The notes: generated by a model not told the origin, from the letters alone. Shown: positions 1-56,698, numbered from the stretch's first letter. The stretch is 56,698 bases of DNA from an uncultured Bacteroidales bacterium (GCA_946409405.1 CAMJWL010000002.1:1-56698); one strand, 5' to 3'. Numbers and translations: made by a program.

Positions 1-2346
1 GAACATTGAACCGCCTAACGCCATCTGCGGTATCATCAAGAGCGGTATCATAATGTAGATGGTGACCGCCGAATTGAACGCCGAAGATATATTGAGACCC
101 ATCATATTGGCAAATACAAACATCGAGAATAGCACAAGCCAGAACGAACCGTACATCTCCCATTCAAATTGCAGTATAGTATTGCCAACAAGCACGTACA
201 GGATGGCCTGTACCGCTGATATGAAAGTCAATATGACGACCTTTGCCACCAAGTAGCTCGACCGCGACAGATTGAGAAACTCTTCTCGCTTGAGTATCTT
301 GCGGTCGCGGAATATTTCCTCCGCCGACACCGTAAGTCCCAAGAACAGAGCCACGATGATACTCATAAAGATATACGGCACAACGTTCTCATTCTCGAAG
401 AAGAGGTAGCGTCCCTTGTTGGGATCCGTGTACCTAATCAGGAACGACAATATGAAGCCCAGCAACGGTGCCTCCAAAAGGTTGAGCACCACATATTGAG
501 TGTTGCTCACTTTGGACTTGACATCCCTCCTGAGGTATATCAGGAACTGATGAAGCCAATTGGGCACATGCAGATTTTTAGGCGGCTCGTTGGTAACGTC
601 GTCTATCTTCTCAGGCGTGACGTTCTTCCTGAAACGTTCCTCCCATACCTGCGGCGTCACCTTGCGCTCGTCCTTGAAATTACCGTATTCGTCCACCTTC
701 TGCGCCTCGATGATGTCGAAGATTACCTCCGGCGTGGAGTTACCACAGACAGGACACTCGCCCTCCTCGCTCTTTACCTGGTTGTCGGCTGTCTTGAAGT
801 AAGAAATACAGTCGATAGGATGCCCGTAATAGACCATATATCCTCCAGTATCGAGGATAATCATCTTGTCGAACATCTTGTAAATCTGCGACGACGGCTG
901 GTGGATAACCACAAAAATAAGTTTGCCTTTGAGGGTCAACTCCCTCAAAAGGTCCATAACATTCTCAGAGTCCCTTGACGACAAACCCGACGTAGGCTCG
1001 TCCACAAACAGGATGGAAGGCTCGCGGATAAGTTCGAGGGCTATATTGAGACGCTTGCGCTGACCGCCCGAAATCAACTTGTTGAGCGAGTTGCCCACTT
1101 TGAGGTCGCGGCGTTCATAGAGGCCGAGGCTCTTCAAGACGGAGTTTACCTTGGCGGTAATCTCGTCGTCATTCATGTCCTTGAAACAGAACTTCGCGCT
1201 GAAATAAAGGTTTTCAAAGACCGTCAACTCCTCTATCAGAAGGTCGTCCTGCGGGATGAGTCCTATGACACCTTCGAGCCTTTCCTTCTGCGTGTGGAGG
1301 TTGATGCCGTTGATAAGCACCTCGCCCTTCGACGGAGTAGTGATGCCCGAAAGCACGTTGAGCAACGTAGTTTTGCCCGCGCCCGACGCACCCATGATGC
1401 CCACAAGCCTGCCCTGGCACTCGGAGAAGCTGATGTTCCTCAGACCAATAGTACCGTTGGGGAACTTGAATTCGAGGTTGTTGCAGTTGAACGACAAGTT
1501 GGTAAAGGTCTTGTCTGCCTGGAACGTGGCTACCACGTCGCTATAATACACAGGCTTACCTTTGGAGAGTTTGAGCGTGGCACCCGGCGCAAACGAGTAA
1601 ATACGGTCGGCGAATATCGCCTGGCCGTTCAAGAACACGTCGTGCGTGCCGGTGTAGCGCATGAAGTAGAGTTCCTGCGTGGTAACTCGCATAATGAAGA
1701 TGTCGGAGTCGAGACCCTCGCATCGGATGGTCTTGGTGTTGACAAACGAATACTCATTGTCGCTGATTACCAAAATGTTTGGCGAATCAAACTTCATAGC
1801 ATCGTTGTTGACCACAAAATTTTCCGAATCCTTCAACACGTCCTGTGCGCCCTCCGTAATCGACGACTTTTCGGGATTGACATTGAATACCTCGCCCACG
1901 GTGTTGATGATGGCCATGCGCTGCTCCGTAAATTTCTTGCTGGTATTCACCAACTCAAACAGACGCACATACACCACTATCTTCTGCTGCTGGTTGATCT
2001 GCTTATTAATCTTCTTGCAGATACCGAGGATTTTGACGGACTCGCGCACCGAAGTAAGTTCCTTGTCCTTCTCCATCTTGGCACGCGCCTCCGGGTTGTT
2101 GGCGAGTTCCTTCTCGAGCTCGAGTTGTTTCTTGCGTTCACGCTCCTGCTTGCGCAGGGCTTTTTCGTCGAGGATAAGACCCACCTGCTTTTTGAAATCG
2201 AGCAACCACTCCTGAGCCGCCTCCACACCAAGTTGCTGTATGAGGAAACTCTCCACATACTGCAATTCCTTGTCCTCGATGCCGCCGTCCTGCTTGGCGG
2301 TGAGGGCAAACAACTGGATTAACGCTCTTAAAATCTCCTCACTCAT
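1..2346 (-). CDS. ABC transporter ATP-binding protein/permease, ABCG-like. Partial: the C-terminal membrane part runs off the window. Carries a ~300-aa N-terminal non-transporter extension.
   Basis: Absent from the ORF track because there is no stop inside the window. Reverse translation from ATG at 2346 reads MSEEILRALIQLFALTAKQDGGIEDKELQYVESF... Walker A is GIMGASGAGKTTLLNVLSG (~1355-1400). Signature plus Walker B is ISGGQRKRLNIALELIREPSILFVDEPTSGL (~990-1080). Hydrophobic ABC-2-type segments follow toward nt 1. Plus-strand ORFs 496-978 and 1294-2322 are antisense shadows. Confidence 0.9.
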   Translation of the reverse strand, partial: MSEEILRALIQLFALTAKQDGGIEDKELQYVESFLIQQLGVEAAQEWLLDFKKQVGLILDEKALRKQERERKKQLELEKELANNPEARAKMEKDKELTSVRESVKILGICKKINKQINQQQKIVVYVRLFELVNTSKKFTEQRMAIINTVGEVFNVNPEKSSITEGAQDVLKDSENFVVNNDAMKFDSPNILVISDNEYSFVNTKTIRCEGLDSDIFIMRVTTQELYFMRYTGTHDVFLNGQAIFADRIYSFAPGATLKLSKGKPVYYSDVVATFQADKTFTNLSFNCNNLEFKFPNGTIGLRNISFSECQGRLVGIMGASGAGKTTLLNVLSGITTPSKGEVLINGINLHTQKERLEGVIGLIPQDDLLIEELTVFENLYFSAKFCFKDMNDDEITAKVNSVLKSLGLYERRDLKVGNSLNKLISGGQRKRLNIALELIREPSILFVDEPTSGLSSRDSENVMDLLRELTLKGKLIFVVIHQPSSQIYKMFDKMIILDTGGYMVYYGHPIDCISYFKTADNQVKSEEGECPVCGNSTPEVIFDIIEAQKVDEYGNFKDERKVTPQVWEERFRKNVTPEKIDDVTNEPPKNLHVPNWLHQFLIYLRRDVKSKVSNTQYVVLNLLEAPLLGFILSFLIRYTDPNKGRYLFFENENVVPYIFMSIIVALFLGLTVSAEEIFRDRKILKREEFLNLSRSSYLVAKVVILTFISAVQAILYVLVGNTILQFEWEMYGSFWLVLFSMFVFANMMGLNISSAFNSAVTIYIMIPLLMIPQMALGGSMF

Positions 2347-2812: not shown

Positions 2813-3391
2813 TTATTCTTTTATACGTGAAATAGTTGATGTTAAAACGAAGAACGAATTGACACTGTCAATCGTCAGGAAGCTGTATAGCAACTTCTGT
2901 CCGGTCTTACGAGCGATGTCGATAAAACCGAGTCCCGCGCCTCCACGGTCGGAAATGCTTCCTTCCCGCATCTGCTGCTTGTAGAGTTTGTTGAGTCCGT
3001 CCTTGTCTTGCTTATTGACGTTCTCGAGAATCGACCGCAACTTTTCGACGTTGGCGTTCTTGATGATGTTGCCGGTGGTGACGTTGTATTCCGTCGCCGC
3101 CTTCGACACCATAAAAATGCCCCTGCCGTCCTTCGCCGATTCGTTGGCATTACCTTCGGAGTGCTTGCTTATGTTCTGTAGGCATTCCACCATGACGTGG
3201 AACACCTTTTTCTGAACGGAGCTTGGGTCCTCCTCTCGCGCCATATTGGTCTCGGCGAGGGAGGTAAACGCCTTCGTTATCTGGTGCGTTATCTCTCCTT
3301 CGTAAGCCAAATTGATGTTGTTACGCTTCATCTTGACGTAGAAGTCATAAACAAAATCAAGCGACTCTTTATGTTCTTTTGTGTTCGCCAT
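2813..3391 (-). CDS. SiaB-family protein kinase (HATPase-like anti-sigma-kinase fold)
   Basis: 192 aa. C-terminal SISDRGGAGLGFIDIARKTG ATP-lid-like motif. Size and position between a PP2C and a DUF1987 gene match the SiaA-SiaB-SiaC order. Confidence 0.7.
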   Translation of the reverse strand: MANTKEHKESLDFVYDFYVKMKRNNINLAYEGEITHQITKAFTSLAETNMAREEDPSSVQKKVFHVMVECLQNISKHSEGNANESAKDGRGIFMVSKAATEYNVTTGNIIKNANVEKLRSILENVNKQDKDGLNKLYKQQMREGSISDRGGAGLGFIDIARKTGQKLLYSFLTIDSVNSFFVLTSTISRIKE

Positions 3392-3426: not shown

Positions 3427-6075
3427 TTAAAACTCTATACCAATGAGCAAGATGTCGTCCACCTGCTTGTAACTGCCCTTAAACTCCAGGAAGTCCTTCT
3501 CAAACAAATCCCTGTACTGCGGCATCGTGAGTTCCGGATTGTTCTCGATGAGTTCCTTGATGCGCCCAGGACGGTATTTGCGACCGTCTTCGCCGCCTAT
3601 CTGGTCGGGAAGACCGTCTGAGAAGAAGAAACATTTTTCACCGGGCTTGAAGTTGATTTCGTAGTCCTCAAACTTCTTCTCCTCCCTGCCTTTGCGCGGC
3701 GGCTTGCCACCGATGGCCTGCGCCGTGCCTTTGTACTGCAAGAGTTCGCGCTGCGAGTTGAGATAGTACAGAGGCCTGTGTGCGCCCGAAAAGTGAAGTA
3801 TGCCTTTCTCGAAGTTTATTTTACATAAAGCAATATCCATGCCATCCCTTGCCTCCTGTTCCTCGCTGTCTTGTTTTAATGTCTTGCGGACACCAAGATG
3901 GAGTTGGTCGAGCACCTGCCCCGCATGGAGCGCGTCGGCGTGGTCGGCTATGATATTGAGGTTGAAATATCCAATGAACGAGAGCAACGCGCCCGGCACA
4001 CCGTGGCCAGTACAATCGACCGCCGCAATATATACGTTGTCGTCTTTCTCGAAGAACCACGGGAAGTCGCCGCTTACCACGTCCCTCGGCCGGTAAAACA
4101 TGAAGAACTTGGGCAGACGTACCGTAATGGCGTCGAGACTCGGTATAATCGCCGACTGGATTCGCTGCGCGTAGTTGATGGACTCGGTGATAGACTTGTT
4201 CTTTTCCTCGATTTCCATCTCGATGCGCTTGCGCTCGGTGATGTCGTGCGCCACAAAGAGGACCGTTTCGAGTTCCTTCTCCTTGTTGAACTCCGGGATG
4301 GCGTTAAACTGGATGATCATGTCCTCGCCGTCTTCGCCCACATTCGGGAAGGTGGTCTCGGTGTCGAACATGCGCTGGTTTTGAACCACCTGATCCAAAG
4401 CGTCCTTGAAGAAGGCGCGGATTACGTCGTTGAGTTTTACCTCGTCTATCTGCTTGGATACAATCTGGTCTTTTTTGAGTCCCACAATCATCTGTCCCAC
4501 GGGGTTCACATAGAAGAACTTGCCGTCGGGACTCAGGCGCAGGATGGCGTCGAGAGAGTTCTCCGACAATGCCTGCATCTCACCAGACATGCGCTGCGCC
4601 TTCTCTGCAATCTTGCGCACGGTGATGTCGCGGGTGTTGAAGATAATGCCCTGTATTGCCGCATTGCTGAGGAGGTTGCGGCCTGTTGCCTCGAGCCACA
4701 GAGTCTCCGTATCCGACTTCTTGAACTGGTACTCGAATGTAACCGGCGTCTCGGGGTGAGCAAGCAACTGTTTGAACACTTCGTGGAACTTGTGACGGGA
4801 GTTTTCGTCGAACTTCTCGATGGCACTCTTGCCCACAATGTAATCAGGCTCGTAGCCCAAGATGCTCTTGGACGACGGGCTTTCGTATGTAACGAGGGCG
4901 TTTTCGTCGTAGATGGAGATGACCTCAGATGCGTTTTCGAGAAGGGCGTACTGACGTTTCTGACCACGCTCCACCTCGCGAATCTGAGCCTCCAATTTCT
5001 TGTTGGTGTCTTGAAGTTCGAGTTGTGCCTTCTGCATCGCCTCGGCGTTCTTGCGAAGTTCCTCCTCGTTTTTCTGCAACTGCTTGGTCATTTCCTGGGC
5101 GTCGCGGAGGAGTTTCTCTGTCTGGGTGTTCACCTTCAAGTTGAAGATGGTCTGCGCGATAATCTCGCTCACCTCCTTCACAAGGTTGAGGGTCTTGTTT
5201 GGCAGGTCGGGCAGCAAGGACGCAAACTCGATGACACCCTGCAACTTCTCGTCGCTGATGAGGGGCGAGAGCAACAGGGTCTGCGGCTTCTGGTCGCCAA
5301 GGATGCCAGAACTGATGGTTACATAGTCGGCGGGAATTTCCTTGCGGTAAATAATGTCGCGCTCGAAGGCAGCCTGTCCCACAAGCCCGACGCCTATCTG
5401 AAATTCCTGGGTAACGTATTTTTTGCGGTTGTAGGCATACGTGGCGATGTTGACGAGGGTCTTCTTGTCCTCGTCGTATAGGTAGAACGCGCCTTGCACC
5501 GCGTTGATAAATTCTATGATGTTGATGATGGTCTCGTATGCGAGGTCGTTGATGCTATTGCGCTGACGGAGGATGTCGCCCACAATTTCCTTGCCTTTTG
5601 CAATCCACGCTTGCTCCGCCTCACGCTGCGATGTCGCCACAAGGTTGTTTTTCATTATAAGCAACGAACTACCGAGGAGGTCGTTCTGGTCGATTTCGCT
5701 GTTGTCGAAGTAGAGGTCGCCTTCACCAATTCGCTTGGCGATCATGGAGTTTTTGCGGAAGATTTCGTTTTTCTCGTCGAGCATCTTCTCCAGTTCCTCG
5801 TTCTGACGGCGGTTGCGACGCGCAAAATAATTGAAAATAATTCCAATTACAATAGGCGCGAGGTCTATGATATAGAGCAACGGCGAGCGATCGTGGATGT
5901 AAAGGAGTTTGGATAACGAAAACTGGATGTGCTTCATCTGAAACTCCGCAAGTATCGCCACGACAGGGAACAGCATACCGATAGCAATGCCTACCATGGT
6001 GTAAATCAGCACCATGTGGGGATTGCTTGCAATCCTGTCTTCTTTGATTGATATGTCAGTTTCCTGTGTTGCCAT
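3427..6075 (-). CDS. Membrane-anchored GAF-PAS-PAS PP2C (SpoIIE-type) Ser/Thr phosphatase, SiaA-like
   Basis: 882 aa. Two N-terminal TM helices; a GAF module (QGAFYLYDEDKK...GVGLVGQAAFERD...SSGILGDQKPQTLLLSPL); a coiled coil; two PAS-like blocks. C-terminal SGDFPWF..AAVDCTGHGVPGALLS..DGMDIAL..FSDGLPDQ motifs are typical of SpoIIE/PP2C. Confidence 0.85.
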   Translation of the reverse strand: MATQETDISIKEDRIASNPHMVLIYTMVGIAIGMLFPVVAILAEFQMKHIQFSLSKLLYIHDRSPLLYIIDLAPIVIGIIFNYFARRNRRQNEELEKMLDEKNEIFRKNSMIAKRIGEGDLYFDNSEIDQNDLLGSSLLIMKNNLVATSQREAEQAWIAKGKEIVGDILRQRNSINDLAYETIINIIEFINAVQGAFYLYDEDKKTLVNIATYAYNRKKYVTQEFQIGVGLVGQAAFERDIIYRKEIPADYVTISSGILGDQKPQTLLLSPLISDEKLQGVIEFASLLPDLPNKTLNLVKEVSEIIAQTIFNLKVNTQTEKLLRDAQEMTKQLQKNEEELRKNAEAMQKAQLELQDTNKKLEAQIREVERGQKRQYALLENASEVISIYDENALVTYESPSSKSILGYEPDYIVGKSAIEKFDENSRHKFHEVFKQLLAHPETPVTFEYQFKKSDTETLWLEATGRNLLSNAAIQGIIFNTRDITVRKIAEKAQRMSGEMQALSENSLDAILRLSPDGKFFYVNPVGQMIVGLKKDQIVSKQIDEVKLNDVIRAFFKDALDQVVQNQRMFDTETTFPNVGEDGEDMIIQFNAIPEFNKEKELETVLFVAHDITERKRIEMEIEEKNKSITESINYAQRIQSAIIPSLDAITVRLPKFFMFYRPRDVVSGDFPWFFEKDDNVYIAAVDCTGHGVPGALLSFIGYFNLNIIADHADALHAGQVLDQLHLGVRKTLKQDSEEQEARDGMDIALCKINFEKGILHFSGAHRPLYYLNSQRELLQYKGTAQAIGGKPPRKGREEKKFEDYEINFKPGEKCFFFSDGLPDQIGGEDGRKYRPGRIKELIENNPELTMPQYRDLFEKDFLEFKGSYKQVDDILLIGIEF

Positions 6076-6144
6076 TTTAGTCGTTAAAATCGGTTGCTAA
6101 ATTACAGAATTTTACACGGAAAATAAAATTTTCGGCGATTTTTT

Positions 6145-8724
6145 TTATTTGTCCCAACTTTTCAGCCAATTTCTGTACCTCTGGTCCAATGACGAAAGCG
6201 TTCCATCACTCTCCGCAAGGCTGTTAACTTTCTCAATCTCAGTGAGTTTTGATTTAAGATCGCTTTCACTGTGCTGAGCGGTCTTGAGCCTGTCGTGCAA
6301 ATCTTGATTTTGCGCCTTCATTATCTCCACCTGCTTCATCGCCTGCTCCTCTATCTCCTTATGTACGGTGATGTCGAATGCGGTGTAAAGCACTTTGAAC
6401 ACCTTGCCGTCGGTATCCCTTACCGGCGTGTATTGGTTGATAAGCCAAATGTCGTTGCCAGTGAGTTTGGACTTACGTTTTACAGTCATCTGGTGCATAT
6501 TACCTTCGCAAACATTTTGCCACAATGCCTTAAATTCCATGATTTCTTCGTCAGGAATGAAGGTCAAAATGTTTTTGCCCTTGGTCTGCTCGTAGTCGTA
6601 CCCCATGGTCTTGATGTGTTTTGCGTTGGCAAACAGCAAGTTGCCTTCCACGGAATACTCCGCCCGCATCATGGTCTCGTCTATGGCGGTAAGCACCGAG
6701 GTCATCTCGATACGGTTTTTTGCCATGCTTTCCTGCGTGGCTTGCAGCATTTCGGCGCGCTCCTGCTCCACGGCGAGGAGTTGCTTGTTTTTTTCCTCGA
6801 TGTTTTTCTGCTCGGTGATGTCGTTGGCTATGTAGAGGACGCGCACCACATTGCTCTTCTGGTCAAAAATCGGCGTGTACTGCGAGATAAGCCAGATATT
6901 GTCGCCATTTTTGCTCTTCTGGTTGACAATCTTCTGGTACGACTGTCCGGCGCAGATGTTTTGCCATACAATGTCAAAATTGTCCAAGTACTCATCGGAA
7001 AGGATACTCCTGATATTTCTGCCGATAAGCTCGTCTTTGCGGTATCCAAGCGCAGAGAGGTATTTCTGGTTGGCGGATTCAAACTTACCTTCGGGATCCA
7101 ACTCGGCTTTGAGAAGGGTCTCATCGACGGCGGAAAGAATACCCGACATCTCCGCCTCGCGTCGCTGCGATTCGTCGCGGGCGGTGGTCATCTCCGCCAT
7201 CGCCTTGTGGAGTTCCTGCTCGCGGACGGCAAGTTCGTCTGACTTTTTCTGCGATTCCTGGAGGAGTTCGGCGGTACGGGCGTTGTTGCGCAACGAGGAG
7301 AGCGTGGAGGCTATGGAGTCGCCAAGTTTTTCCACAAACTGGATTTCGTGCGGTTTCAAAAGGTTGAGCGACGCCAATTCTATAACGCCAAGTATGGTGT
7401 CTTCCGATTTGAGCGGCACCATCAATAGGCATTTTGGACGCGAGTCTCCAAGACCCGATTCTATCGCCATGTAGTCTGGCGGAACGTCTGTAATATATAA
7501 GGTGTTCTTCTCCAACGCGCACACGCCCACAAGACCGTCGCCGAGGGGGATGCGCTTGGTAAGGAATTTTTTGCGGTCGTATGCAAATGCCGACAGCATT
7601 TCGAGGTAGATGTGGTTTGCGTCGGAATCGTCCAATATAAACAGACCGCCCTGACTCGCATTTATATAATGTACGAGGTTTTTGATTACTTCGTCGGAAA
7701 GGGTGGTGATGTTTTCGTTGAAATGGCGCATGATGTCGCCAAATTTAGCCAGACCCTGCGTAGTCCAGTTGCGCTGCTCGTCTTCGAGACGGCGTTTTTT
7801 CTCTTCGCTCTGCGTGGTTGACAGGCGGTTGCGGAGTTCGATAAGGCTCTTTGCCATGGAACCTTCCACAGCCTCCACGCCTACTTCCGAATCGTATTCG
7901 CCCTGAGCAATCTTGTGCGAAAACTCGGTAAGTCGCTTGAAGTTGGATGCGGTTTCGTTGATGCGGTGATTAAGTAGGCCAAACTCAGTCTTGTCTTCGT
8001 CGAGCCTGTAATCCGGCACGATGCCGCGCATGAGCAATGATATGAAATTGTCTGCCTTGATGAAGCCCGCCTTCATGTAGCGGAACACAAAGAGACCTAT
8101 CATCATTATCAGCAATATCAATGGCACCGACAATGCCGCTACCACAATGCCGTGGTGCTGTATCTCGTCCCTTATCTTCTGGTCGCCAGCAATGAGATTG
8201 TTGCGGTGCGCCATGTACATCTGATTGAGGGTCTTGCGTATCTGTTCAAACGCGCTTATCTCCTTGACACCGAGCAACTCACGCGCCGACTCCACTCGCC
8301 CGTTGATGATAAGGCGCATGATGTCTTTGTTGACGTTCTGGTAGATCACAAACTCGTTTTTGAATTTGTCTAAAATCCTGAGTTCTTCCGCCGACTGCAA
8401 TGTGGCTTCGTAGTCTTTGAGGCGCACTTCGTAGAATTGGTTGAACTTATTGTGGTGCCTCTGGATGGTAACAACGTCGGTCTCGCTCTCGATGATGGCA
8501 TGATTCTGCACCACGAGAGTATAGATGTCTTCGGAAAGGGCGTACAACGGGTATATACTCGTAGCCTGATGCCCGGTGAACGCCTCCACATCGCTCCTTA
8601 TCTTGCCGACCGAGTACAACGAGTATATGCAATAAAATAAGGCATAAGCCGCTACCATCGTAAACAACAGTATCAACTTATTCCGAAAGTCCATTTTGTC
8701 AAATATTTGGTTCACAGTTCCCAT
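6145..8724 (-). CDS. MCP-like sensor: 4-helix-bundle N-domain, TM, HAMP, GAF, 2x PAS. No recognisable output domain.
   Basis: 859 aa. The N-terminal ~190 aa lie between two TM helices and have a 4HB_MCP-like heptad character. A HAMP-like linker follows (TEFGLLNHRINETASNF), then GAF (QGGLFILDDSD...GDGLVGVCALEKN...ESGLGDSRPKCLLMVPL). Two PAS blocks are each preceded by a Glu/Gln-rich coiled coil. No MA, kinase or GGDEF motif seen. Confidence 0.8.
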   Translation of the reverse strand: MGTVNQIFDKMDFRNKLILLFTMVAAYALFYCIYSLYSVGKIRSDVEAFTGHQATSIYPLYALSEDIYTLVVQNHAIIESETDVVTIQRHHNKFNQFYEVRLKDYEATLQSAEELRILDKFKNEFVIYQNVNKDIMRLIINGRVESARELLGVKEISAFEQIRKTLNQMYMAHRNNLIAGDQKIRDEIQHHGIVVAALSVPLILLIMMIGLFVFRYMKAGFIKADNFISLLMRGIVPDYRLDEDKTEFGLLNHRINETASNFKRLTEFSHKIAQGEYDSEVGVEAVEGSMAKSLIELRNRLSTTQSEEKKRRLEDEQRNWTTQGLAKFGDIMRHFNENITTLSDEVIKNLVHYINASQGGLFILDDSDANHIYLEMLSAFAYDRKKFLTKRIPLGDGLVGVCALEKNTLYITDVPPDYMAIESGLGDSRPKCLLMVPLKSEDTILGVIELASLNLLKPHEIQFVEKLGDSIASTLSSLRNNARTAELLQESQKKSDELAVREQELHKAMAEMTTARDESQRREAEMSGILSAVDETLLKAELDPEGKFESANQKYLSALGYRKDELIGRNIRSILSDEYLDNFDIVWQNICAGQSYQKIVNQKSKNGDNIWLISQYTPIFDQKSNVVRVLYIANDITEQKNIEEKNKQLLAVEQERAEMLQATQESMAKNRIEMTSVLTAIDETMMRAEYSVEGNLLFANAKHIKTMGYDYEQTKGKNILTFIPDEEIMEFKALWQNVCEGNMHQMTVKRKSKLTGNDIWLINQYTPVRDTDGKVFKVLYTAFDITVHKEIEEQAMKQVEIMKAQNQDLHDRLKTAQHSESDLKSKLTEIEKVNSLAESDGTLSSLDQRYRNWLKSWDK

Positions 8725-8756
8725 TTACTTGGACGTTATTATCTTTTTCAAAAATC

Positions 8757-8764
8757 CAAATTTA
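8757..8764 (-). promoter_or_regulatory. Candidate Bacteroidetes -7 box (TAAATTTG on minus strand) for the sensor/partner-switch operon
   Basis: Plus-strand CAAATTTA is the reverse complement of TAnnTTTG. Lies 33 nt upstream of ATG 8724. Confidence 0.45.
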
Positions 8765-8923
8765 GTAACAATTTTTGAATATCGCCACATCATTTTTGCG
8801 TTTTTTGTAAAAAAAAATTGCCCGATGCTGATTATCAGCGCGTTACAAAGGCATATTTTTTTTGTGCAATAATGGCTTTTTCGGAAAAAAATCAAAAAAC
8901 GTGCCTAAAATTCGATTTTATGT

Positions 8924-8968
8924 AACAACCCCGCAACATCGGGGGCGTGCGCCTTGATGTGCGGGGGG
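8924..8968. repeat. REP-like hairpin, third copy of the AACAACCCCGCACATC...GATGTGCGGGG element
   Basis: aacaaccccgcaacatc-gggggcgtgcgcctt-gatgtgcgggg. The arms match the hairpins at 26896-26930 and 47687-47726 but the loop is different and larger. Confidence 0.6.
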
Positions 8969-9074
8969 ATAGGAACACTTGCACTGCGCCTGCAATTCGG
9001 GGCCGAATATAATAAAATTCGCATCCACCCAAAAAATCCCCCCTTTTTTATTTTGCAATCCAAAAAAATAATCA

Positions 9075-9082
9075 TACCTTTG
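9075..9082 (+). promoter_or_regulatory. Candidate -7 box TACCTTTG for the CheR/T9SS-cargo operon
   Basis: TAnnTTTG match 23 nt upstream of ATG 9105. Confidence 0.5.
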
Positions 9083-9104
9083 TATTGTTGTTTCAACATT
9101 GAAA

Positions 9105-9950
9105 ATGGAACTTAGCGAACAAGACATACAGAAGGTGCAAGACACCATCAGGAACGTTTCGTCATACGACTTCTCCGACTATTCCTACAACAGTTTTTGC
9201 CGCAGGATAGAGAAGATACTGCTCGATTATGGCGTGTCGCTCGACGTGTTGCTCAGGGACATCCAGGGCAACTACAACTTCATGGAAAAAGTGGTGCGCG
9301 ACATCACCGTAAACACCACAGAACTATTCCGCGACACCGAAGCATGGCTCAAAATACGCACCCTCCTGGAAACCAAATACGCCGACAAAGAATCGCTATA
9401 CATCTGGCACGCCGGATGCTCGTCGGGGCAGGAAGTATATTCAATGATGATAATGCTCTGCGAAATCGGCATGATAGACAAAGCCTCCATATACGCCACC
9501 GACATCAACGAAAACATGCTCCGTACCGCAATGTCGGGGCAATACAAATACCACGAAGTGCAAGACTACATCGGCAACTTCGACAAAGTGTTCAACCCCA
9601 AAGTACATTCGGAGGCAGTGCCATACGTCGATATGCGCAAATACATAGAAGTAAACAAACAGAAAGACTACGTAAAAATGGAGCGCAGCCTCGTGGAAAA
9701 GCCGCTCTTCTTCAAGCACGACCTCGTGTCGGGCGAACCCATCATCGCCCGCAAACTCGACATAATCCTCTGCCGCAACGTCCTCATATATTTCAACCAC
9801 AACCTGCAAAACAAAGTCCTCAAATTTTTCTACGACAACCTCGCCGACGACGGATGCCTCATCATAGGCCGCCACGAAGGCATGATAGGACACGTGGCTT
9901 CCCTCTACGACAAGAAAGGAACAATCTACTACAAGAGGAGTATAATATAG
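9105..9950 (+). CDS. cheR: CheR-family protein-glutamate O-methyltransferase (stand-alone)
   Basis: The track ORF starts at TTG 9099; ATG 9105 (MELSEQD..) is more likely. The N-terminal helical domain (FSDYSYNSFCRRIEKIL) plus AdoMet-MTase motifs (LYIWHAGCSSGQEVYSMMIML, DIILCRNVLIYF) are typical of CheR. Confidence 0.85.
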   Translation: MELSEQDIQKVQDTIRNVSSYDFSDYSYNSFCRRIEKILLDYGVSLDVLLRDIQGNYNFMEKVVRDITVNTTELFRDTEAWLKIRTLLETKYADKESLYIWHAGCSSGQEVYSMMIMLCEIGMIDKASIYATDINENMLRTAMSGQYKYHEVQDYIGNFDKVFNPKVHSEAVPYVDMRKYIEVNKQKDYVKMERSLVEKPLFFKHDLVSGEPIIARKLDIILCRNVLIYFNHNLQNKVLKFFYDNLADDGCLIIGRHEGMIGHVASLYDKKGTIYYKRSII

Positions 9951-10041
9951 CATTGTTGACAAAAAATAGCAAATTAAACACAAATTGTGGCATTTTTATT
10001 GCTAAAAGTTGCAGTAATAAAACCAACAAAGCACGAAAAAA

Positions 10042-10869
10042 ATGAAAACAATCAGACACATACTCGCCACGGCAGCGGCGGCCGCGTCATTGACGGCGGC
10101 GCAAGCCCAGGTGTCCGCCGACTTCACCGTCTCGCCAGACAAGGCTTGCACGGGCGAAGCCATTACTATCACAATCAAAAACTCTTCCGGAGAATACAAG
10201 ATTGCCAACGTAACCGACTTCGGCGACGGCATAGACACATACGGCAAAGACCTAAAACATATCTACGAAAAGCCAGGCACATACACAATCTCAGTAAGGC
10301 TCCTGCTCAAAGACGACACTTGGACGCAGGCCACCACAAAGACCATCACAATAGGCGAAACGCCCGAACTCACCCTCGAAGACAACGCCGACGCCGCGCT
10401 CATCACCGCCACCACGTCCACAGGAGCGTCGCTCGAATGGATGTGCAACGGCAGCAAAATCAGCAACACAGAAAATACACTCTATTACCTCGAAGGAGGC
10501 ACGTACACCGTTACCGCCTCCAACAACGGATGTGCCGCCACACAGACCTTGAAGGTTACGTACCAAAAACAGGCCGCCAACGACGACACTTATATTAAAG
10601 TAGCCAACAACGTAATCACGCCAGGCAACAAGGACGGTGTCAACGACGTACTATTCATCGAGGACGTGGGCAACTACACCTCGCCATGCTCCGTCAAAAT
10701 ATTCGACAAGAGAGGCCGCATGGTATATTCAAACAACAATTACACCAACACCGACGGGTTCCAGGGGCTCGACGACAACGGCAACGAACTTTTTGCCGGC
10801 ACTTATTACTATGTTATCAAAAGCCAGGGCAAAAAAGGCTGCACGGGCTTTGTCGATTTAATCAGATAA
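10042..10869 (+). CDS. Secreted PKD-domain protein with a T9SS type-B (gliding-motility-associated) C-terminal sorting domain
   Basis: Signal peptide MKTIRHILATAAAAASLTAAQAQ. PKD-like FTVSPDKACTGEAITI..FGDG..HIYEKPGTYTISV. C-terminal NNVITPGNKDGVNDVLFIE..VKIFDKRGRMVYS..FAGTYYYVI..GFVDLIR fits the TIGR04131-type CTD. Confidence 0.85.
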   Translation: MKTIRHILATAAAAASLTAAQAQVSADFTVSPDKACTGEAITITIKNSSGEYKIANVTDFGDGIDTYGKDLKHIYEKPGTYTISVRLLLKDDTWTQATTKTITIGETPELTLEDNADAALITATTSTGASLEWMCNGSKISNTENTLYYLEGGTYTVTASNNGCAATQTLKVTYQKQAANDDTYIKVANNVITPGNKDGVNDVLFIEDVGNYTSPCSVKIFDKRGRMVYSNNNYTNTDGFQGLDDNGNELFAGTYYYVIKSQGKKGCTGFVDLIR

Positions 10870-10882
10870 AACACTTACGATC

Positions 10883-12433
10883 ATGACAAGGAAAATAATC
10901 ACAGCCGCCGCGCTCCTGCTCACCGTCCACACCGCCATGGCGCAGGAGTTGACGCCCGGACAGACCTATATGAACCGCTTTGCCGTAGCACCTGCCTTTG
11001 CGGGCTTCAACGGCAACGACGAAGGATTCCTCGGATACCGCGCCACCATGACGGGCATCGACGGCGCGCCTACACTACTCCGCGCCAACGTCAACGGCAA
11101 CCTCAAAGGCACAATGGGCTACGGCGTGGACATCGCAAACGAAAAGGCGGGCAACTTCAACAACACCATAGCCGCCCTCACATACGCATACCACGTCAGA
11201 CTGAGCAACGACATGAACCTCAGTTTTGCCCTCACGCCCACCATAGTAAGGTCGGCATACGACCTCGCCAAAGCCAAGACATACAGCGCACAGGTGGACC
11301 CCGTGTTCCAAAACGAGGCAGGACTCGCCGGCACGGGCTTCGACGCAGGATTCTCGGTAATGTTCAACGTGCAAGGGCTATACGTGAGCATCAACGCGCC
11401 GCGTCTTATATGCCCCGACCTCAAATTCCAGAACGGCATCGTAAACACCGACCGCGTTATCAACGCAAACGTATCGTATGCCATCGAAGCCGACAAATGG
11501 GAGATAGAACCAGGCGCGGCTGTATGCTACGGCATCAAGGGCGGACTCGACTGGCGGGCATTCGCAACCTTCAAATACGACCGCCGTGCATGGCTGCAAT
11601 TGTCATACGCCTCGCAAAAATGGATGGGCATAGGAGCGGGGTTTGCCGCCACCAACAGGATTGTATTGTGCTACCAGTACGAAGTGGGCATGTCTGACAT
11701 CGCCAAAACCTGCAACGGCAACCACGAAGTTACAGTGGGATTTCTGTTGAACAAGGCCAAGAAATTACAGAAGCCCACCATCTTCATCGACGACAAGCCC
11801 GACTCCAAGCCCGACTCCAAAGCCGAAAGCGGACTTGCCAAGAAGTTGCAAGAAGAAATAAAGGCCCGCACCAACGAAATCAAGCGTCTCGAAGGCATTA
11901 TAGAAGACTGCTGCGCCAACAACAACCCGTCGTCGGACGTCAACAGCCCCAAGCCCTCGGAAGACCCCAACCAGATTACCGACCCAAGCGAGCCAAACCA
12001 GCAGATTGCCGACAACAACGAAATAGAGCAGCCCTCCGACGACAGCGAAGTGGCGCAGCCCCGCGACCCGCACAAAGTGGAATGGCTCACCCCCACCGAA
12101 CTCATCAACGTAAGGTTTGCAACGGGAACCGCCACCATGCTCAAAGCGTCCATGTCGGATCTCGACGCCTTCGCGCTCAAGGTAAAACACGCCAAAAACA
12201 ACGACCGCGACATCCTCATCATCGCCTATACCAACGACCCAACGGCATACGGCAAGCAGATGTCTGAACGCCGCGCCATGGCCATCAAAAAATACCTCAT
12301 CTCCAAAGGCGTACCCGCCAACAGGCTCATTGCAACTGGCATGAGGCTACGCAACATAGCCGAAGACCCCGACGGACGCTACGAAGACAATAGGATAATG
12401 GTAGGCCTCGAAGTTAAGCAGAGAGACAAGTAA
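10883..12433 (+). CDS. PorP/SprF-family T9SS outer-membrane protein fused to a C-terminal OmpA-like peptidoglycan-binding domain
   Basis: N-terminal ~290 aa: signal peptide, then MNRFAVAPAFAGF..., with PorP/SprF beta-barrel character. An acidic/Pro-rich linker follows (KPDSKPDSK...SEDPNQITDPSEPNQQ). The C-terminus RFATGTATM..ILIIAYTND...SERRAMAIKKYLISKGVPANRL is OmpA_C-like. Confidence 0.8.
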   Translation: MTRKIITAAALLLTVHTAMAQELTPGQTYMNRFAVAPAFAGFNGNDEGFLGYRATMTGIDGAPTLLRANVNGNLKGTMGYGVDIANEKAGNFNNTIAALTYAYHVRLSNDMNLSFALTPTIVRSAYDLAKAKTYSAQVDPVFQNEAGLAGTGFDAGFSVMFNVQGLYVSINAPRLICPDLKFQNGIVNTDRVINANVSYAIEADKWEIEPGAAVCYGIKGGLDWRAFATFKYDRRAWLQLSYASQKWMGIGAGFAATNRIVLCYQYEVGMSDIAKTCNGNHEVTVGFLLNKAKKLQKPTIFIDDKPDSKPDSKAESGLAKKLQEEIKARTNEIKRLEGIIEDCCANNNPSSDVNSPKPSEDPNQITDPSEPNQQIADNNEIEQPSDDSEVAQPRDPHKVEWLTPTELINVRFATGTATMLKASMSDLDAFALKVKHAKNNDRDILIIAYTNDPTAYGKQMSERRAMAIKKYLISKGVPANRLIATGMRLRNIAEDPDGRYEDNRIMVGLEVKQRDK

Positions 12434-12458
12434 TTAACCCCAAAAAACGACACCCAAA

Positions 12459-12944
12459 ATGACCAGGCAAATACTCAAATACCTGATGGCAGGCATATTG
12501 ACCGCCGCCACCACGGGCATTGCGGCGGCGCAGTCCATCAGCCTCGGACACACCACTCCGGCGGCAAGCACTGCGCACGCGGGCGGGCTGTCTTACACTT
12601 ACTCGATAGGGCGGATAGCAAGGATGGTAACTACAACCATCCCCGCCGACTCTCGCGACGGCAATACCAAGGCGGCGTCAAGCACCAAGGCAATAGCCGC
12701 CACCGCATACCCCAACCCATGCACCACCCTACTCCGCGTCAAGGCCGACGAGCCAATATCCGGCACCAACGCCAAGATACAGATAATAGACAGCAAAGGA
12801 GGCGTGGCTGCCACAATGAAAACATCGTCTGCCAGCGACGACGGCGAAATCTCAATAGACATGTCGCACTTCGCACAAGGCAAATACATAATCAAGATAA
12901 CCAACGCTAACGGCACATACACCGCCACAGCAATCAAATTCTGA
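12459..12944 (+). CDS. Small secreted protein consisting almost only of a T9SS type-A C-terminal sorting domain
   Basis: 161 aa. Signal peptide, a ~60-aa low-complexity segment, then AYPNPCTTLLRVKADEPISG..IQIIDSKGG..FAQGKYIIKITNANGTYTATAIKF (Por_Secre_tail pattern). Confidence 0.75.
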   Translation: MTRQILKYLMAGILTAATTGIAAAQSISLGHTTPAASTAHAGGLSYTYSIGRIARMVTTTIPADSRDGNTKAASSTKAIAATAYPNPCTTLLRVKADEPISGTNAKIQIIDSKGGVAATMKTSSASDDGEISIDMSHFAQGKYIIKITNANGTYTATAIKF

Positions 12945-12950
12945 CATATC

Positions 12951-14906
12951 ATGAAAACGAGAATCATAAATACAATAGGCATCCTTGCCCTGGCGGCCTC
13001 CATACACACCGCCACAGCCCAGACCCTGCCAAATACTTTCAGCTACCAGGCCGTGATAACTGCCGAAGACGGCTCCCCGGTAAGCAACCACGACATCACC
13101 GTGGAAGTATCCATACGCCAAGGCGACAACTGCGAGAGCGGCAACTCCTGTCCCGTACTGTGGCAGGAACTCCATGCGCCCAAAACCAACGAATTTGGAA
13201 GTTTCAGCATCGAGATTGGCGACCCAAACGCCATCAGCACCACGGGCGGCTCGCTTGCCAGTTATTCTAAAATAGACTGGCTCGACACCAAAAAAGGCAA
13301 CTATTACATGCAAGTGCGCGTGGACTTTGGCGAGGCATCGTACCTCAACGGCATGACAGACCTCGGCACCACCAAATTCTCGTCTGTGCCATACGCCATC
13401 GCCGCAGTTACCGCCGAATCTGCCAAAGGTCTCGCCAAGGACGAAAACGGCAAAATAGCCAACAAAATAGGCGAACTTCAAGACGTGGACGTCAATTCGC
13501 CCAAGAAAAACCAAATCCTTGTATTTGACGGCACTTCGTGGAAAAACACAGACCCCGCCGCCGCACAAGGCCTTACAAACATCGCCATATCAAACCCCAA
13601 GACCGGCGACATCCTTGTATATAACGAATCCACCGGCAACTGGGAAAACAAGGCGCAAACCGCCCCGTCCCTCGAAAAACTCAGCGACGTAATTCTCGAA
13701 AATCCCACTGTGAACCACGTGCTTGCATACAACCCAGACGAAAAACGATGGTCAAACAAGGCGTTTACCTTCGACATGATCAAAGAAGTGAGCGCATCCG
13801 GCGCAAAAGTGGGCGACGTGCTTACCTTTACCTCAGAAGGCCTTTGGGAAGCACAGGCGGGCGGCAGCGGCGAGGGCGGCGCGTCTGCTTTGAGCGGTCT
13901 CTCCGACGTAAAAATATCATCCGACGTGGACGAGGGACACGTACTCCGCTACTCAGCCACCGACAAAAAATGGAAAAACTCCGCCCCCGGCGCAGACAAC
14001 GTATGGAGGGTGGACTCCAAGCAAACATTTGCATACGCATCTTACAAAAAAATAGGCATCGGCACCAACACCGACAAGGAAGAAAACTACGCCAAAGCCC
14101 AACTCCACATCAAGGACGGCAACAACAACACCCTGTTTAACGCCCGTGGCATCACCATCGGCGCAAGCGAAATAAGGACACAGGCCACCGGTTCAATAGC
14201 ACTTGGCGGCGGCAACGCCAACGACGTGCAGGGCGCAGCCGTAATTGCTGGCACAGGCTCCACTTCTGGCGAACTTGCCAAAAACAGCATTGTAATGGGC
14301 AGCGGCTCTTCTTGCAGCGGCAACGGCGACATCGTGATAGGCGACGAAAGCAAGGCGCAATTCAACAACTGCGCTATATTCGGCAACAACCTGAGCGCAG
14401 GATACGCCAACCAGTTTATATGCGGCAAGTACAACACTTACACCGACCAAACGGCGGTATTCATTGTAGGCAATGGCACATCGAAGACCGATACCAAAAA
14501 CATCTTCACCATCGCCCCAGACGGCACTGTTACCTGCACTGGCGCGATGAACTCTTCCGACGCCCGCCTCAAAACCAACATCAATCCCCTCGCCTACTCA
14601 TTGCAGAACGTACAGAAACTCCGTGGCGTTACCTTCAATTGGAACAAGGCCACCAGCCCCAACGCCTCCGACAAGACCCAGTACGGATTCATCGCCCAGG
14701 AAGTGGAGAAAGTGTTCCCCGACCTCGTTGGCACCGACAGCAACGGCTACAAGACCGTCAACTACGTAGGCGTAATCCCCGTTTTGACCGAAGCAATCAA
14801 GGCGCAGCAAGACGAAATCCAAGAGTTGAAATCCGAGAACGAACAACTCAAATCGACCCTCGAACAACTCCTCAAACGTGTAGAGATGTTGGAAAAGAAC
14901 AAATAA
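12951..14906 (+). CDS. Tail-fibre-like secreted protein with a C-terminal peptidase-S74 intramolecular-chaperone (auto-cleaving) domain
   Basis: 651 aa with a signal peptide. Five Trp-containing repeats (NQILVFDGTSWKN, GDILVYNESTGNWENK, NHVLAYNPDEKRWSNK, GDVLTFTSEGLWEAQ, GHVLRYSATDKKWKNS). A YadA-head-like stretch (GSIALGGGNANDVQGAAVIAGTG..NSIVMGSGS). C-terminal SDARLKTNI...LRGVTFNWN...YGFIAQEVEKVFPDLV...NYVGVIPVLTEAIK plus a coiled coil match the endosialidase-chaperone domain. Confidence 0.85.
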   Translation: MKTRIINTIGILALAASIHTATAQTLPNTFSYQAVITAEDGSPVSNHDITVEVSIRQGDNCESGNSCPVLWQELHAPKTNEFGSFSIEIGDPNAISTTGGSLASYSKIDWLDTKKGNYYMQVRVDFGEASYLNGMTDLGTTKFSSVPYAIAAVTAESAKGLAKDENGKIANKIGELQDVDVNSPKKNQILVFDGTSWKNTDPAAAQGLTNIAISNPKTGDILVYNESTGNWENKAQTAPSLEKLSDVILENPTVNHVLAYNPDEKRWSNKAFTFDMIKEVSASGAKVGDVLTFTSEGLWEAQAGGSGEGGASALSGLSDVKISSDVDEGHVLRYSATDKKWKNSAPGADNVWRVDSKQTFAYASYKKIGIGTNTDKEENYAKAQLHIKDGNNNTLFNARGITIGASEIRTQATGSIALGGGNANDVQGAAVIAGTGSTSGELAKNSIVMGSGSSCSGNGDIVIGDESKAQFNNCAIFGNNLSAGYANQFICGKYNTYTDQTAVFIVGNGTSKTDTKNIFTIAPDGTVTCTGAMNSSDARLKTNINPLAYSLQNVQKLRGVTFNWNKATSPNASDKTQYGFIAQEVEKVFPDLVGTDSNGYKTVNYVGVIPVLTEAIKAQQDEIQELKSENEQLKSTLEQLLKRVEMLEKNK

Positions 14907-30775: not shown

Positions 30776-30813
30776 ATCTTGTAAGGTGTTAAAAGGTTGG
30801 TAATCTATTACCG

Positions 30814-30821
30814 CAAAAGTA
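30814..30821 (-). promoter_or_regulatory. Candidate -7 box (TACTTTTG on minus strand) for the GH53 gene
   Basis: Plus-strand CAAAAGTA, 39 nt upstream of ATG 30775 and just downstream of the terminator hairpin. Confidence 0.45.
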
Positions 30822-30837
30822 ACACTAATTTCCAACA

Positions 30838-30887
30838 AAAACAAAAAAATCCGCCGCATCTGAAGACCTTTTTTTCGATGCGGCGGA
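30838..30887 (-). terminator. Rho-independent terminator between the SusE/F-like gene and the GH53 gene
   Basis: 11-bp stem TCCGCCGCATC / GATGCGGCGGA (30850-30860 / 30877-30887). On the minus strand it is followed by TTTTTTTGTTTTTGT. Confidence 0.7.
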
Positions 30888-30921
30888 ATGATTAATTATG
30901 AGAGAGAAAATACTTTGATGC

Positions 30922-33123: not shown

Positions 33124-33150
33124 TTTTAGTCAATTAAAAAAGTTGTTGTA

Positions 33151-46385: not shown

Positions 46386-46390
46386 CTACC

Positions 46391-55046: not shown

Positions 55047-56698
55047 ATGAAAAGGCTAAATTTAGGCATAAAGACCAAACTGAACCTCATTCTGCTGTGC
55101 TCCATCATCCCCTTCGCGGTGGTGGGGTTGGCTTTTGGCATTCTGCTTTTCAAAAATAGCGACTACGACAAATACGCCGCCAAGGTGATTGAAATCAAAC
55201 TGTCGTACCTCCACTTGAAAGAGTACGAGCAGTCGTTTCTGCTGTATTATCCGAGCGACAACGTGTTCTTCAAGACCAACGAAAACGAGTATCTGCGCAA
55301 GTTTGAACTCGAAAGCAAGGTGCTTAACAAGGATCTCGACGAACTCCTCAACCTGCCAACGACCACAAACCTCGAACTCGGCGACAAAATCTACATGCTC
55401 AAAGAGAACGCCGACAGTTATGGCGACATCCTGAAACTCACCGCGTCCAAGATTTACCAGCGCGGCTCGTTCCAGACGGGCATCATCGGCGAGATAGAGC
55501 GCAGTTACGCCAACGCCGTGAGCCAGCAGTCGTTGCCCCTCAACGTCCTCACCTCGCTCAAAGAGATGGAGGTGCAGTACATCAACAGGAAGGACATGAC
55601 CTTCTACAACGATTTTATAGAACTCTACACGCAGTACCTCGGCAACGTGCCAGGCTCTCTGGACGACATAGACCTTGCAACGATAGTGCGCTCCGACACC
55701 ACCCGCGCCGATTCGATTGCACACGCGGCTGTCAACCCCCAAAACCTCAAAAACGCCGACAAGATAAAGCCCGTCAACGACATGAAGCGTTACTTCAACG
55801 CATTGGCTAAGATAGACAAGGAAATCGGCTTCAACCGCGAGGAAGGCCTTCTGTTTGACCTGCAAATAGAAAAGTCGAAACTCGAAACCATAGACGAAAT
55901 CATCAAGTACGTGGACGAAAAACGCGAAAACACCGCCCAAAACATGCGCAACCTCTATATCGCCATCGTGATATTGATGCTGCTCGCGATGTTTGTAACG
56001 CACATCAGGATTTCCAAGTTTATAACCAACGCCATCGACAAACTCAGCGGCTACGTTACGCAACTCAGCAAGGGTATCCTGCCCGACAAGGAAATCGAAA
56101 TCCACAACAACGACGAACTGTCGGACATGGCGGCAAACCTCAACACCTTTGCCCGTGGCTTGAAACAGACCACCGAATTTGCAACGGCAATCGGCGCAGG
56201 CAACCTCGACACCGAATTCAAGCCGCTCTCCGAAAGCGACATCCTTGGCAATTCGCTCCTCGAAATGCGCAGCAACCTCTACAAATCGCAACAGGAAGAC
56301 GAAAAACGCCAGCACGAAGACGAACTCCGCAAGTGGGCCAACGAAGGTTTGACGCAGTTTAGTGAAATCCTCCGTCAGAGCACGAGCAACATCAAGGATC
56401 TCTCCAACAACGTCCTCAAAAACCTCATCCACTTCCTCGGTGCCAACCAAGGCGGCTTGTTCCTCTACAACGACACCGACAAGGAGGACATCCACCTCGA
56501 ACTCGTGTCGTCCTACGCCTACAATCAGGAGCGCAAGAAGAAGAAAAAGATTTACCTCGGCGAAGGCCTCATCGGTACGTGCGCCATCGAAAAATCATAC
56601 GTATATCTCACCGACCTGCCCGACGACTACCTGACCATCACATCAGGCCTCGGCGCGTCCAATCCGAGCAGCCTCCTTATAATGCCGCTCAAAGTGGA
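55047..56698 (+). CDS. MCP-like HAMP-GAF sensor, a paralog of 6145-8724 (partial; runs off the window)
   Basis: Absent from the ORF track because there is no stop in the window. Manual translation from ATG 55047: MKRLNLGIKTKLNLILLCSIIPFAVVGLAFGILLF... A second TM helix (LYIAIVILMLLAMFV). HAMP (NNDELSDMAANLNTFARGL). GAF (GANQGGLFLYNDTDKEDIHLELVSSYAYNQERKKKKKIYLGEGLIGTCAIEKSYVYLTDLPDDYLTITSGLGASNPSSLLIMPLKV). Track ORF 55062-56495(-) is its antisense shadow. Confidence 0.85.
   Translation, partial: MKRLNLGIKTKLNLILLCSIIPFAVVGLAFGILLFKNSDYDKYAAKVIEIKLSYLHLKEYEQSFLLYYPSDNVFFKTNENEYLRKFELESKVLNKDLDELLNLPTTTNLELGDKIYMLKENADSYGDILKLTASKIYQRGSFQTGIIGEIERSYANAVSQQSLPLNVLTSLKEMEVQYINRKDMTFYNDFIELYTQYLGNVPGSLDDIDLATIVRSDTTRADSIAHAAVNPQNLKNADKIKPVNDMKRYFNALAKIDKEIGFNREEGLLFDLQIEKSKLETIDEIIKYVDEKRENTAQNMRNLYIAIVILMLLAMFVTHIRISKFITNAIDKLSGYVTQLSKGILPDKEIEIHNNDELSDMAANLNTFARGLKQTTEFATAIGAGNLDTEFKPLSESDILGNSLLEMRSNLYKSQQEDEKRQHEDELRKWANEGLTQFSEILRQSTSNIKDLSNNVLKNLIHFLGANQGGLFLYNDTDKEDIHLELVSSYAYNQERKKKKKIYLGEGLIGTCAIEKSYVYLTDLPDDYLTITSGLGASNPSSLLIMPLKV

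Follow-up and report, generated by a model that had tools for sequence, protein, structure and literature searches.

In textbook chemotaxis, adaptation works through CheR/CheB methylation. Outside the methyl-accepting chemotaxis proteins (MCPs), the only methylation of this kind shown experimentally, to our knowledge, is that of the RsbK/RsbM pair of Bacillus cereus. We describe here a CheR gene of an uncultured rumen Bacteroidales bacterium (GCA_946409405.1) and the operon transcribed divergently from it, both located on an entire contig of 56,698 nucleotides (CAMJWL010000002.1:1-56698; hereafter ‘the window’, meaning the whole stretch of DNA that was analysed). The genome is a metagenome-assembled genome (MAG) of 3.56 Mb in 300 contigs, with 1.1% contamination. 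The window CheR is probably part of a Bacteroidales signalling system and not a chemotaxis enzyme; full-text searching of the published literature gave no description of this system.

Comparison with the closest described systems

In B. cereus, the signalling helix (S-helix) of the sensor RsbK is methylated by the neighbouring CheR-like enzyme RsbM, which has no cognate esterase, and at the end of the pathway (RsbK-RsbM-RsbY with RsbV/RsbW/sigma-B) a PP2C phosphatase acts on a partner switch (PMC4574943). The window is alike in that a CheR-type gene lies beside a non-MCP sensor of the periplasmic-HAMP-GAF-S-helix type and in that a PP2C phosphatase and a partner switch are again found; the helix methylated in RsbK follows the GAF domain, and we propose the same helix position here. 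The differences lie in the output and in the number of components. RsbK is a hybrid histidine kinase (HisKA-HATPase-REC), whereas the window sensors have neither a histidine kinase nor a receiver (REC) domain, and their module is fused directly to the PP2C domain. In the Bacteroidales system a dozen receptors devoid of output domain carry this module, a receiver-less CheB would make methylation reversible and a degenerate second CheR is added. Finally, the switch consists of SiaB and SiaC with an ABC exporter as neighbour, in place of RsbW and RsbV with a sigma factor.

The second relative is SiaABCD of Pseudomonas aeruginosa, a threonine-phosphorylation switch (PMC7647112, PMC8457831; PDB entry 6KKO). 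The membrane PP2C phosphatase, the SiaB-like kinase and SiaC occur in the same gene order in the window, but an ABC exporter follows SiaC in place of SiaD, the phosphatase bears a GAF-S-helix-PAS-PAS module, and CheR/CheB and a receptor family are attached. The canonical MCP-CheA-CheW pathway shares with this system many dispersed membrane receptors with Cache or 4HB and HAMP domains, as well as CheR and CheB homologues, and the receptors described here may likewise converge on one transducer. Unlike the canonical pathway, however, the Bacteroidales system has no MCPsignal domain, no need for CheA or CheW and no canonical methylation consensus, and its transducer is a Ser/Thr phosphatase. Judged by gene and domain content, it joins two known designs, the S-helix sensors of RsbK/RsbM type and the SiaABC switch, to which CheB, a pseudo-CheR, a receptor family and an exporter are added.

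The window CheR and the divergent operon

The genes of the module and the region between its two arms are as follows (TM, transmembrane; SAM, S-adenosylmethionine).

1..2346, minus strand: ABC exporter with a TerB-like N-terminus, ABC_tran and ABC2_membrane (Pfam), truncated at the contig end
2420..2800, minus strand: SiaC-family phosphoprotein, 126 aa (PF09345, 142 bits)
2813..3391, minus strand: SiaB-like protein kinase (DUF6272), 192 aa (PF19788, 142 bits)
3427..6075, minus strand: SiaA-like membrane PP2C phosphatase, 882 aa, TM-GAF-S-helix-PAS-PAS-SpoIIE (Pfam; highly conserved over 27 loci)
6145..8724, minus strand: receptor (Sens), 859 aa, with a 4HB_MCP-like periplasmic domain, two TM segments, a HAMP-like linker, GAF, S-helix, PAS and PAS (Pfam; orthologues adjoin CheR1 in 20 loci)
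8725..9104, between the two strands: putative divergent promoter region, with TAnnTTTG boxes at 8757-8764 (minus strand) and 9075-9082 (plus strand)
9105..9950, plus strand: CheR1a, CheR-type SAM-dependent protein-glutamate methyltransferase (PF01739, structure alignment, tree position)

The CheR1a product has 281-283 aa, with ATG 9105 or the alternative TTG 9099 as start. It matches PF01739 with 123.7 bits (gathering cut-off 27), and its FRD, IWHAGCSSGQEVYS, ATDIN and CRNVLIYF segments can be aligned with the solved CheR structures of B. subtilis and Salmonella (PDB entries 5FTW and 1AF7). The FR of the N-terminal linker, the AGCSxGxE loop, the acidic residue after β2 and CRNVxIYF are thus all present; the SAM-binding and catalytic motifs are kept across 63 related sequences (CheR1, see below), and the reading frame is open and of full length in all relatives. 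By these motifs the enzyme is predicted to be catalytically intact. The first-pass annotation of this DNA had called the CheR complete, which holds for the methyltransferase domain and its motifs; its CheR_N domain stays under the cut-off (21.2 bits for a cut-off of 27), with 28.5 bits in an orthologue (locus L049). The divergent arrangement described there is correct: the gap between CheR and the sensor start at 8724 is 374 nt from TTG 9099 and 380 nt from ATG 9105. The TAnnTTTG boxes, 33 nt (sensor side) and 23 nt (CheR side) upstream of the respective ATGs, are both putative promoters by the known Bacteroides −7 consensus.

The sensor has a 4HB_MCP_1 domain (43.6 bits), a GAF and two PAS domains, and by Pfam it contains no output domain and no MCPsignal, histidine kinase or receiver domain. 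The 4HB-type domain, the TM helices and the absence of a methyl-accepting domain therefore stand as first annotated, but HAMP has no Pfam match at E<=0.01 in this copy; an orthologue (L049) does match, with 30.5 bits, as does the paralogue at 55047 with 25.1 bits. The next gene encodes a protein with N-terminal TM segments and a SpoIIE phosphatase domain (56.5 bits), likewise without MCPsignal (PF00015), histidine kinase or receiver domain by Pfam. The operon had been read as sensors only, and the SiaB-like kinase, SiaC and the ABC exporter had been overlooked. The DUF6272 protein matches the P. aeruginosa SiaB chain (6KKO_A, E=2.6e-11, residues 21-185, phmmer) and the SiaC protein matches 6KKO_C (E=1.1e-15), with the Thr of the NT(A/S)S motif kept in the alignment. 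The ABC exporter is always the final gene of the module: it follows SiaC in the window and wherever this position was recovered (28 of 28 loci), so that the SiaD diguanylate cyclase is not found next to SiaC in any of them. Sheep rumen metatranscriptome contigs match the operon at 100% identity, a sign that it is transcribed.

DUF6272 genes are hugely expanded in these bacteria, with at least 13 in the window genome and at least 13 across its genus, and they are absent from 14 of 14 control genomes. Partner switches of the SiaB/SiaC type seem to be a major signalling currency there.

Conservation of the CheR1 neighbourhood

Homologues of the window CheR form a large family of about 280-aa proteins in Bacteroidota. 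In a maximum-likelihood tree, 63 of them make up a monophyletic group, CheR1 (support 100/97), which excludes the canonical CheR of the host genome (on contig C31, with a long branch) and a second family, CheR2, that forms a clade of its own. We fetched 60 CheR1 neighbourhoods across the order and scored them with the window proteins and with the proteins of one full operon. The commonest layout (L049) is a compact co-directional operon of nine genes: CheR1, a HAMP-GAF-PAS-PAS receptor that is not always present, CheR2, a receiver-less CheB, a protein with two TM segments and a GAF domain (2TM-GAF), PP2C, DUF6272, SiaC and the ABC exporter. This nine-gene CheR1-to-ABC operon may represent the ancestral arrangement, as suggested by the comparison of loci, and several closed genomes contain it. 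CheR1 lies within 10 kb of PP2C, DUF6272 and SiaC genes in about 30 of the 63 neighbourhoods, from many families and dozens of genera; 17 further neighbourhoods contain CheR1-CheR2-CheB(-GAF), several ending at contig edges, and in 15 CheR1 is alone.

The layout of the window itself (ABC, SiaC, DUF6272, PP2C and Sens on one strand, CheR on the other) is kept down to 49% CheR identity with differing outer flanks, and the divergent pairing with a sensor operon recurs down to 46-50%. Closer relatives (L021-L026, 61-86% identity) are uninformative about a specific linkage, since they retain the entire neighbourhood. The other half of the operon is found elsewhere in the same genome: contig C90 carries a second CheR1 (CheR1b, 44% identical to the window CheR), CheR2, CheB and a GAF membrane protein. 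Its CheB has no receiver domain and keeps the GGSAG nucleophile elbow, the His and the PDE motif.

C90 (L092) 6907-7737, minus strand: CheR2 of the window genome

In the CheR2 family (38 sequences) the AGCSxGxE SAM loop is missing, as are the acidic SAM-ribose residue and a nine-residue segment of the β-subdomain, while FRD is kept. Because the glycine-rich SAM loop and the acidic residue are gone, CheR2 is probably not an enzyme but a pseudo-enzyme or an adaptor.

The co-occurrence of genes was measured in a sample of 301 Bacteroidales genomes, 113 with CheR1 and 188 without. DUF6272 is present in 112 of the 113 and in 23 of the 188 (Fisher p=6e-58, kinship ignored). MCPs are missing from 27 of the CheR1 genomes, which are mostly 95-99% complete; in 26 of the 27 there is also no CheW domain of any kind and hence no CheA. 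In the MCP-less genomes the CheR1 enzymes cannot work on chemoreceptors. The linkage of this CheR clade with HAMP-GAF sensors, on which the initial reading depended, is thus strongly conserved both in neighbourhoods and in co-occurrence, and the clade occurs in genomes that lack MCPs. The observation is real and beyond chance.

A family of receptors with a common GAF-S-helix module

A hidden Markov model (HMM) of the GAF domain plus the following helix retrieves 14 proteins in the window genome: three in the window, the GAF protein of C90 and ten others. The reuse of one GAF module in three window proteins (6145-8724, 3427-6075 and from 55047 on) had been noticed from the start and extends in this way to the whole genome; it had been taken as a sign of a shared ligand or partner, but more probably the module marks a receptor family.

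55047..56696, plus strand: third window receptor (TM-HAMP-GAF...), truncated at the contig end (Pfam, HMM)

The other receptors consist of a dCache, Cache_3-Cache_2 or other periplasmic domain, TM, HAMP, GAF, the helix and one to three PAS domains, and no enzymatic output domain was detected in them. The family occurs in all 28 CheR1 genomes tested, MCP-less ones included, with 4-17 copies. Genomes with a second CheR1, the window genome among them, have 13-17 copies compared with 4-13 in the rest, a difference (Mann-Whitney p=1e-5) that is confounded by phylogeny.

The close form of the family is absent from 43 of 44 CheR1-negative genomes. Where such genomes have a match, it is a distant version only (22-32% identity), mostly in open frames of 1000-1500 aa. 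The three distant versions that we fetched (L093-L095) are dCache-HAMP-GAF-HisKA-HATPase-REC hybrid kinases, and in two of the three loci the kinase gene is followed directly by CheR and a receiver-less CheB. These two loci resemble RsbK/RsbM, but with an eraser enzyme, CheB, added.

L094 (G080:C295) 5682-11055: RsbK-like hybrid kinase (dCache-HAMP-GAF-S-helix-HisKA-HATPase-REC x3), CheR and CheB
L093 (G193:C4) 4530-10443: RsbK-like hybrid kinase (dCache-HAMP-GAF-S-helix-HisKA-HATPase-REC x3), CheR and CheB

The post-GAF helix as candidate substrate

Two acidic coiled coils of the sensor had been put forward as CheR substrates. One of them, ELLQESQKKSDELAVREQELHKAMAEM, corresponds to the post-GAF helix, the homologue of the S-helix methylated by RsbM (PMC4574943), and is retained here together with its counterpart in the phosphatase.

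7135..7284, minus strand: post-GAF signalling helix of the receptor, aa 481-530, NARTAELLQESQKKSDELAVREQELHKAMAEMTTARDESQRREAEM..., with a motif common to the PP2C family and to the CheR/CheB-linked hybrid kinases; proposed as methyl-accepting
4960..5130, minus strand: post-GAF signalling helix of the phosphatase, aa 316-372, consensus N.RTEKLL.EAQ.MT.EL.ENEEELRQNAEEMRATQEEL

The consensus of the receptor family is N.RT.ELL.ESQKQA.E[LM]A.QEEEMRQNMEEL.ATQEE, and the corresponding stretch of the CheR/CheB-linked hybrid kinases is ...KTQQQAEELQVQQEELRQANEELEEQ... The common motif is seen by comparing QEEE[LM]RQN[AM]EE[LM] with QQEELRQANEEL of the Bacteroidales RsbK-like kinases: on this alignment, the post-GAF helix of the window sensors is homologous to the S-helix of RsbK-like kinases. 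The phosphatase helix has heptad-spaced acidic pairs and exchanges E and Q at several columns. We considered such exchange as a sign of methylation and rejected it, as mixed E/Q columns are indistinguishable from neutral exchange on an exposed helix. The other coiled coil, which separates PAS1 from PAS2, is not conserved among 20 receptors and was dropped as a candidate. The exact methylation sites are a guess.

Chemotaxis genes elsewhere in the genome

No cheA, cheW, cheY or cheB, nor any further che gene, is present within the 56.7-kb contig, as had been noted. The premise of a host free of Che proteins and MCPs, in which CheR would be an orphan, has to be abandoned: the genome encodes 17 MCPsignal proteins, two CheA, three stand-alone CheW, one REC-CheB and four CheR genes. 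The chemosensory genes lie on contigs C31, C19, C292 and others, and the genome also contains the CheR1-CheR2-CheB-GAF locus of C90. Contig C31 carries a canonical cheA-cheW-cheR-x-cheD-cheB-cheY operon, whose own CheR scores 190 bits with PF01739, and contig C19 carries a second cheA-cheW cluster without CheR or CheB nearby. The MCPs are not a binning artefact, since two 98%-complete genomes of the same genus hold 13-15 of them; MCPs occur in 113 of the 301 sampled genomes of the order. FlhA was searched for in the genome and not found, and the organism seems non-flagellated, as had been assumed. The first-pass annotation had itself named canonical MCPs or a Che cluster elsewhere in the genome as evidence against its reading; both are there, yet they fail to explain the CheR1 clade. 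The core of that reading, a CheR substrate outside MCPs, is kept, with the GAF sensors and their post-GAF helix as candidates.

It should be noted that a chemosensory operon, CheD, REC-CheB and CheY included, occurs here in an apparently non-flagellated bacterium that bears a type IX secretion system (T9SS). A receptor of the window-sensor family (TM-GAF-S-helix-PAS x3; C31:10646-12931, plus strand) is encoded inside this operon, immediately after cheB and a cheY-like gene, and a DUF6272-like gene lies upstream on the same contig (878-1468). The placement of these two genes suggests cross-talk between chemotaxis and the phosphatase switch.

Proposed pathway and alternative explanations

Gene content, linkage, co-occurrence, intact motifs and helix homology are observed, and they point to a system made up of MCP-like receptors (Cache/4HB-TM-HAMP-GAF-S-helix-PAS), a membrane PP2C phosphatase with the same module, a SiaB-like kinase with SiaC, and an ABC exporter. 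The receptors would sense periplasmic or cytoplasmic signals and modulate the PP2C phosphatase through their paralogous GAF, S-helix and PAS modules. By homology with SiaABC of P. aeruginosa, the phosphatase would dephosphorylate SiaC~P and the DUF6272 kinase would phosphorylate it again; free SiaC may then act on the ABC exporter, as its invariant adjacency suggests. Gene linkage and the RsbK/RsbM precedent argue for CheR1 as the enzyme that would methylate glutamates of the acidic helix after GAF, in the receptors, the phosphatase or both; the receiver-less CheB encoded on C90 would take these methyl groups off again, so that the set-point or adaptation would be reversible. We estimate at roughly 60% the probability that CheR methylates glutamates of the post-GAF helix in this receptor/phosphatase family. 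More tentatively, and with less than even odds in our view, the whole could form a second chemosensory pathway independent of chemotaxis, in which 4-17 receptors would converge on PP2C instead of CheA, be adapted by CheR/CheB methylation of the S-helix and control an exporter through SiaB/SiaC; the 2TM-GAF protein and the pseudo-CheR would be possible adaptors, and CheR1 would have been duplicated in the window lineage as the receptors expanded.

Several points weigh against methylation of the helix by the window CheR. Methylation is deduced from context only, and acidic heptad helices are common before PAS domains, which makes the prediction of sites weak. The MCP methylation consensus [ASTG]2-x2-[EQ]2-x2-[ASTG]2 is found in neither of the two window sensors and in one of the 13 GAF receptors tested, and in 10 of the 17 MCPs of the genome. 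A reading of the helix as an MCP-type site was rejected on this ground, and the homology argument runs to RsbK and not to MCPs because the consensus is unmatched. The co-occurrence statistics ignore shared ancestry, and the host genome, an 88%-complete MAG, is split into 300 contigs. Within CheR1, the window CheR falls in a second-copy subclade, CheR1a (support 95/95), whose other members stand alone amid housekeeping genes, and it is co-directional with a cluster of T9SS cargo genes. Lastly, nine of the ten CheR1a members of known genome have MCPs in their genome (two more are in unassigned assemblies), a phyletic pattern compatible with an MCP-directed role of CheR1a.

This last point leads to the view that the window CheR is an extra chemotaxis methyltransferase for some of the 17 MCPs, for instance in the CheA-CheW pathway of C19, which has no CheR or CheB nearby, its position beside the sensor operon being incidental or a matter of cross-talk. 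The two CheA, the several CheW and the GAF-PAS receptor within the canonical che operon, which connects the two systems, would fit. Nevertheless, that operon has its own canonical CheR, from which the window CheR is distant in the tree; the CheR1 clade persists in the 26 genomes without MCP, CheW or CheA; one genome (G069) holds a CheR1a copy and no MCP; and the head-to-head pairing with the sensor operon is kept down to 46-50% identity. We therefore regard this explanation as unlikely. A little less unlikely, but still doubtful, is a target other than a receptor, with the sensor operon merely co-regulated. Such a target could belong to the switch itself (SiaC or the SiaB-like kinase), or it could be the 2TM-GAF protein, the exporter with its TerB-like N-terminus or, from the T9SS cluster, a cytoplasmic factor. 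The core operon always has the 2TM-GAF protein and only sometimes a full receptor, CHU_C/PorP genes follow CheR on its strand in five loci, and the sensors are without the canonical motif. On the other hand, L035 and all B-type operons have no T9SS cluster after CheR, the cargo of that cluster is secreted whereas CheR is cytoplasmic, and the sole non-MCP substrate of a CheR-type enzyme known from experiment is the S-helix of a HAMP-GAF sensor (PMC4574943), a helix common to the receptors and to PP2C. It is highly improbable that CheR is a decaying or non-catalytic paralogue without enzymatic role. Its partner family CheR2 does have a degenerate SAM-binding motif, and the window CheR evolves more quickly than the genes beside it: in L025/L026 it has 61% identity, where the sensor, PP2C and DUF6272 have 73-90%. 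The depth of the sheep rumen metatranscriptome contigs is lower over CheR, but these contigs show presence only, their depth being unreliable for expression level or operon boundaries. Against decay stand the intact SAM and catalytic motifs of all 63 CheR1 sequences and the open, full-length frame of all relatives.

If the post-GAF helix is methylated as we propose, methylation would serve sensory adaptation in a non-kinase pathway too, and many ‘orphan’ CheR and CheB genes of non-motile Bacteroidota would gain a function. The enzymes of chemotactic adaptation appear here linked to an exporter and to a partner switch with a Ser/Thr phosphatase, and a complete writer/eraser pair and a receptor family come with them. 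The system is present in about one third of the sampled Bacteroidales genomes, many of them free of chemotaxis genes, and it occurs in abundant rumen and gut lineages.

T9SS cluster and other genes of the window

10042..14906, plus strand: T9SS cargo cluster downstream of CheR, with a PKD-CHU_C protein (type B C-terminal domain), PorP/SprF-OmpA, a small Por_Secre_tail protein and a protein of 651 aa with a Peptidase_S74 intramolecular-chaperone domain at its end

No TAnnTTTG box is found in the 91-nt gap downstream of CheR, and the cluster may be co-transcribed with it. Such a cluster follows CheR in several families (loci L027, L029, L033, L034 and L048) and is absent in L035; its membership of the system is uncertain. 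A role of CheR in type IX secretion was considered and set aside, the CHU_C/PorP link being confined to a few lineages.

The rest of the window includes a polysaccharide utilisation locus (29282-37764, minus strand) with GH53 (galactanase), SusE/F-like, SusD and SusC genes, and an ECF sigma gene followed by a gene for a PKD-CHU_C protein (45837-47665). Two very large proteins are encoded at 20897-26818 (plus strand; 1973 aa, with Flg_new_2, InlB B-repeat-like, and CUB domains) and at 47781-52694 (minus strand; 1637 aa, with a GLUG motif). A transposase-like gene of the PD-(D/E)XK nuclease family (PDDEXK_2, 195 bits) lies at 19120-20112 (plus strand), and a homologue is present near the module in L027.

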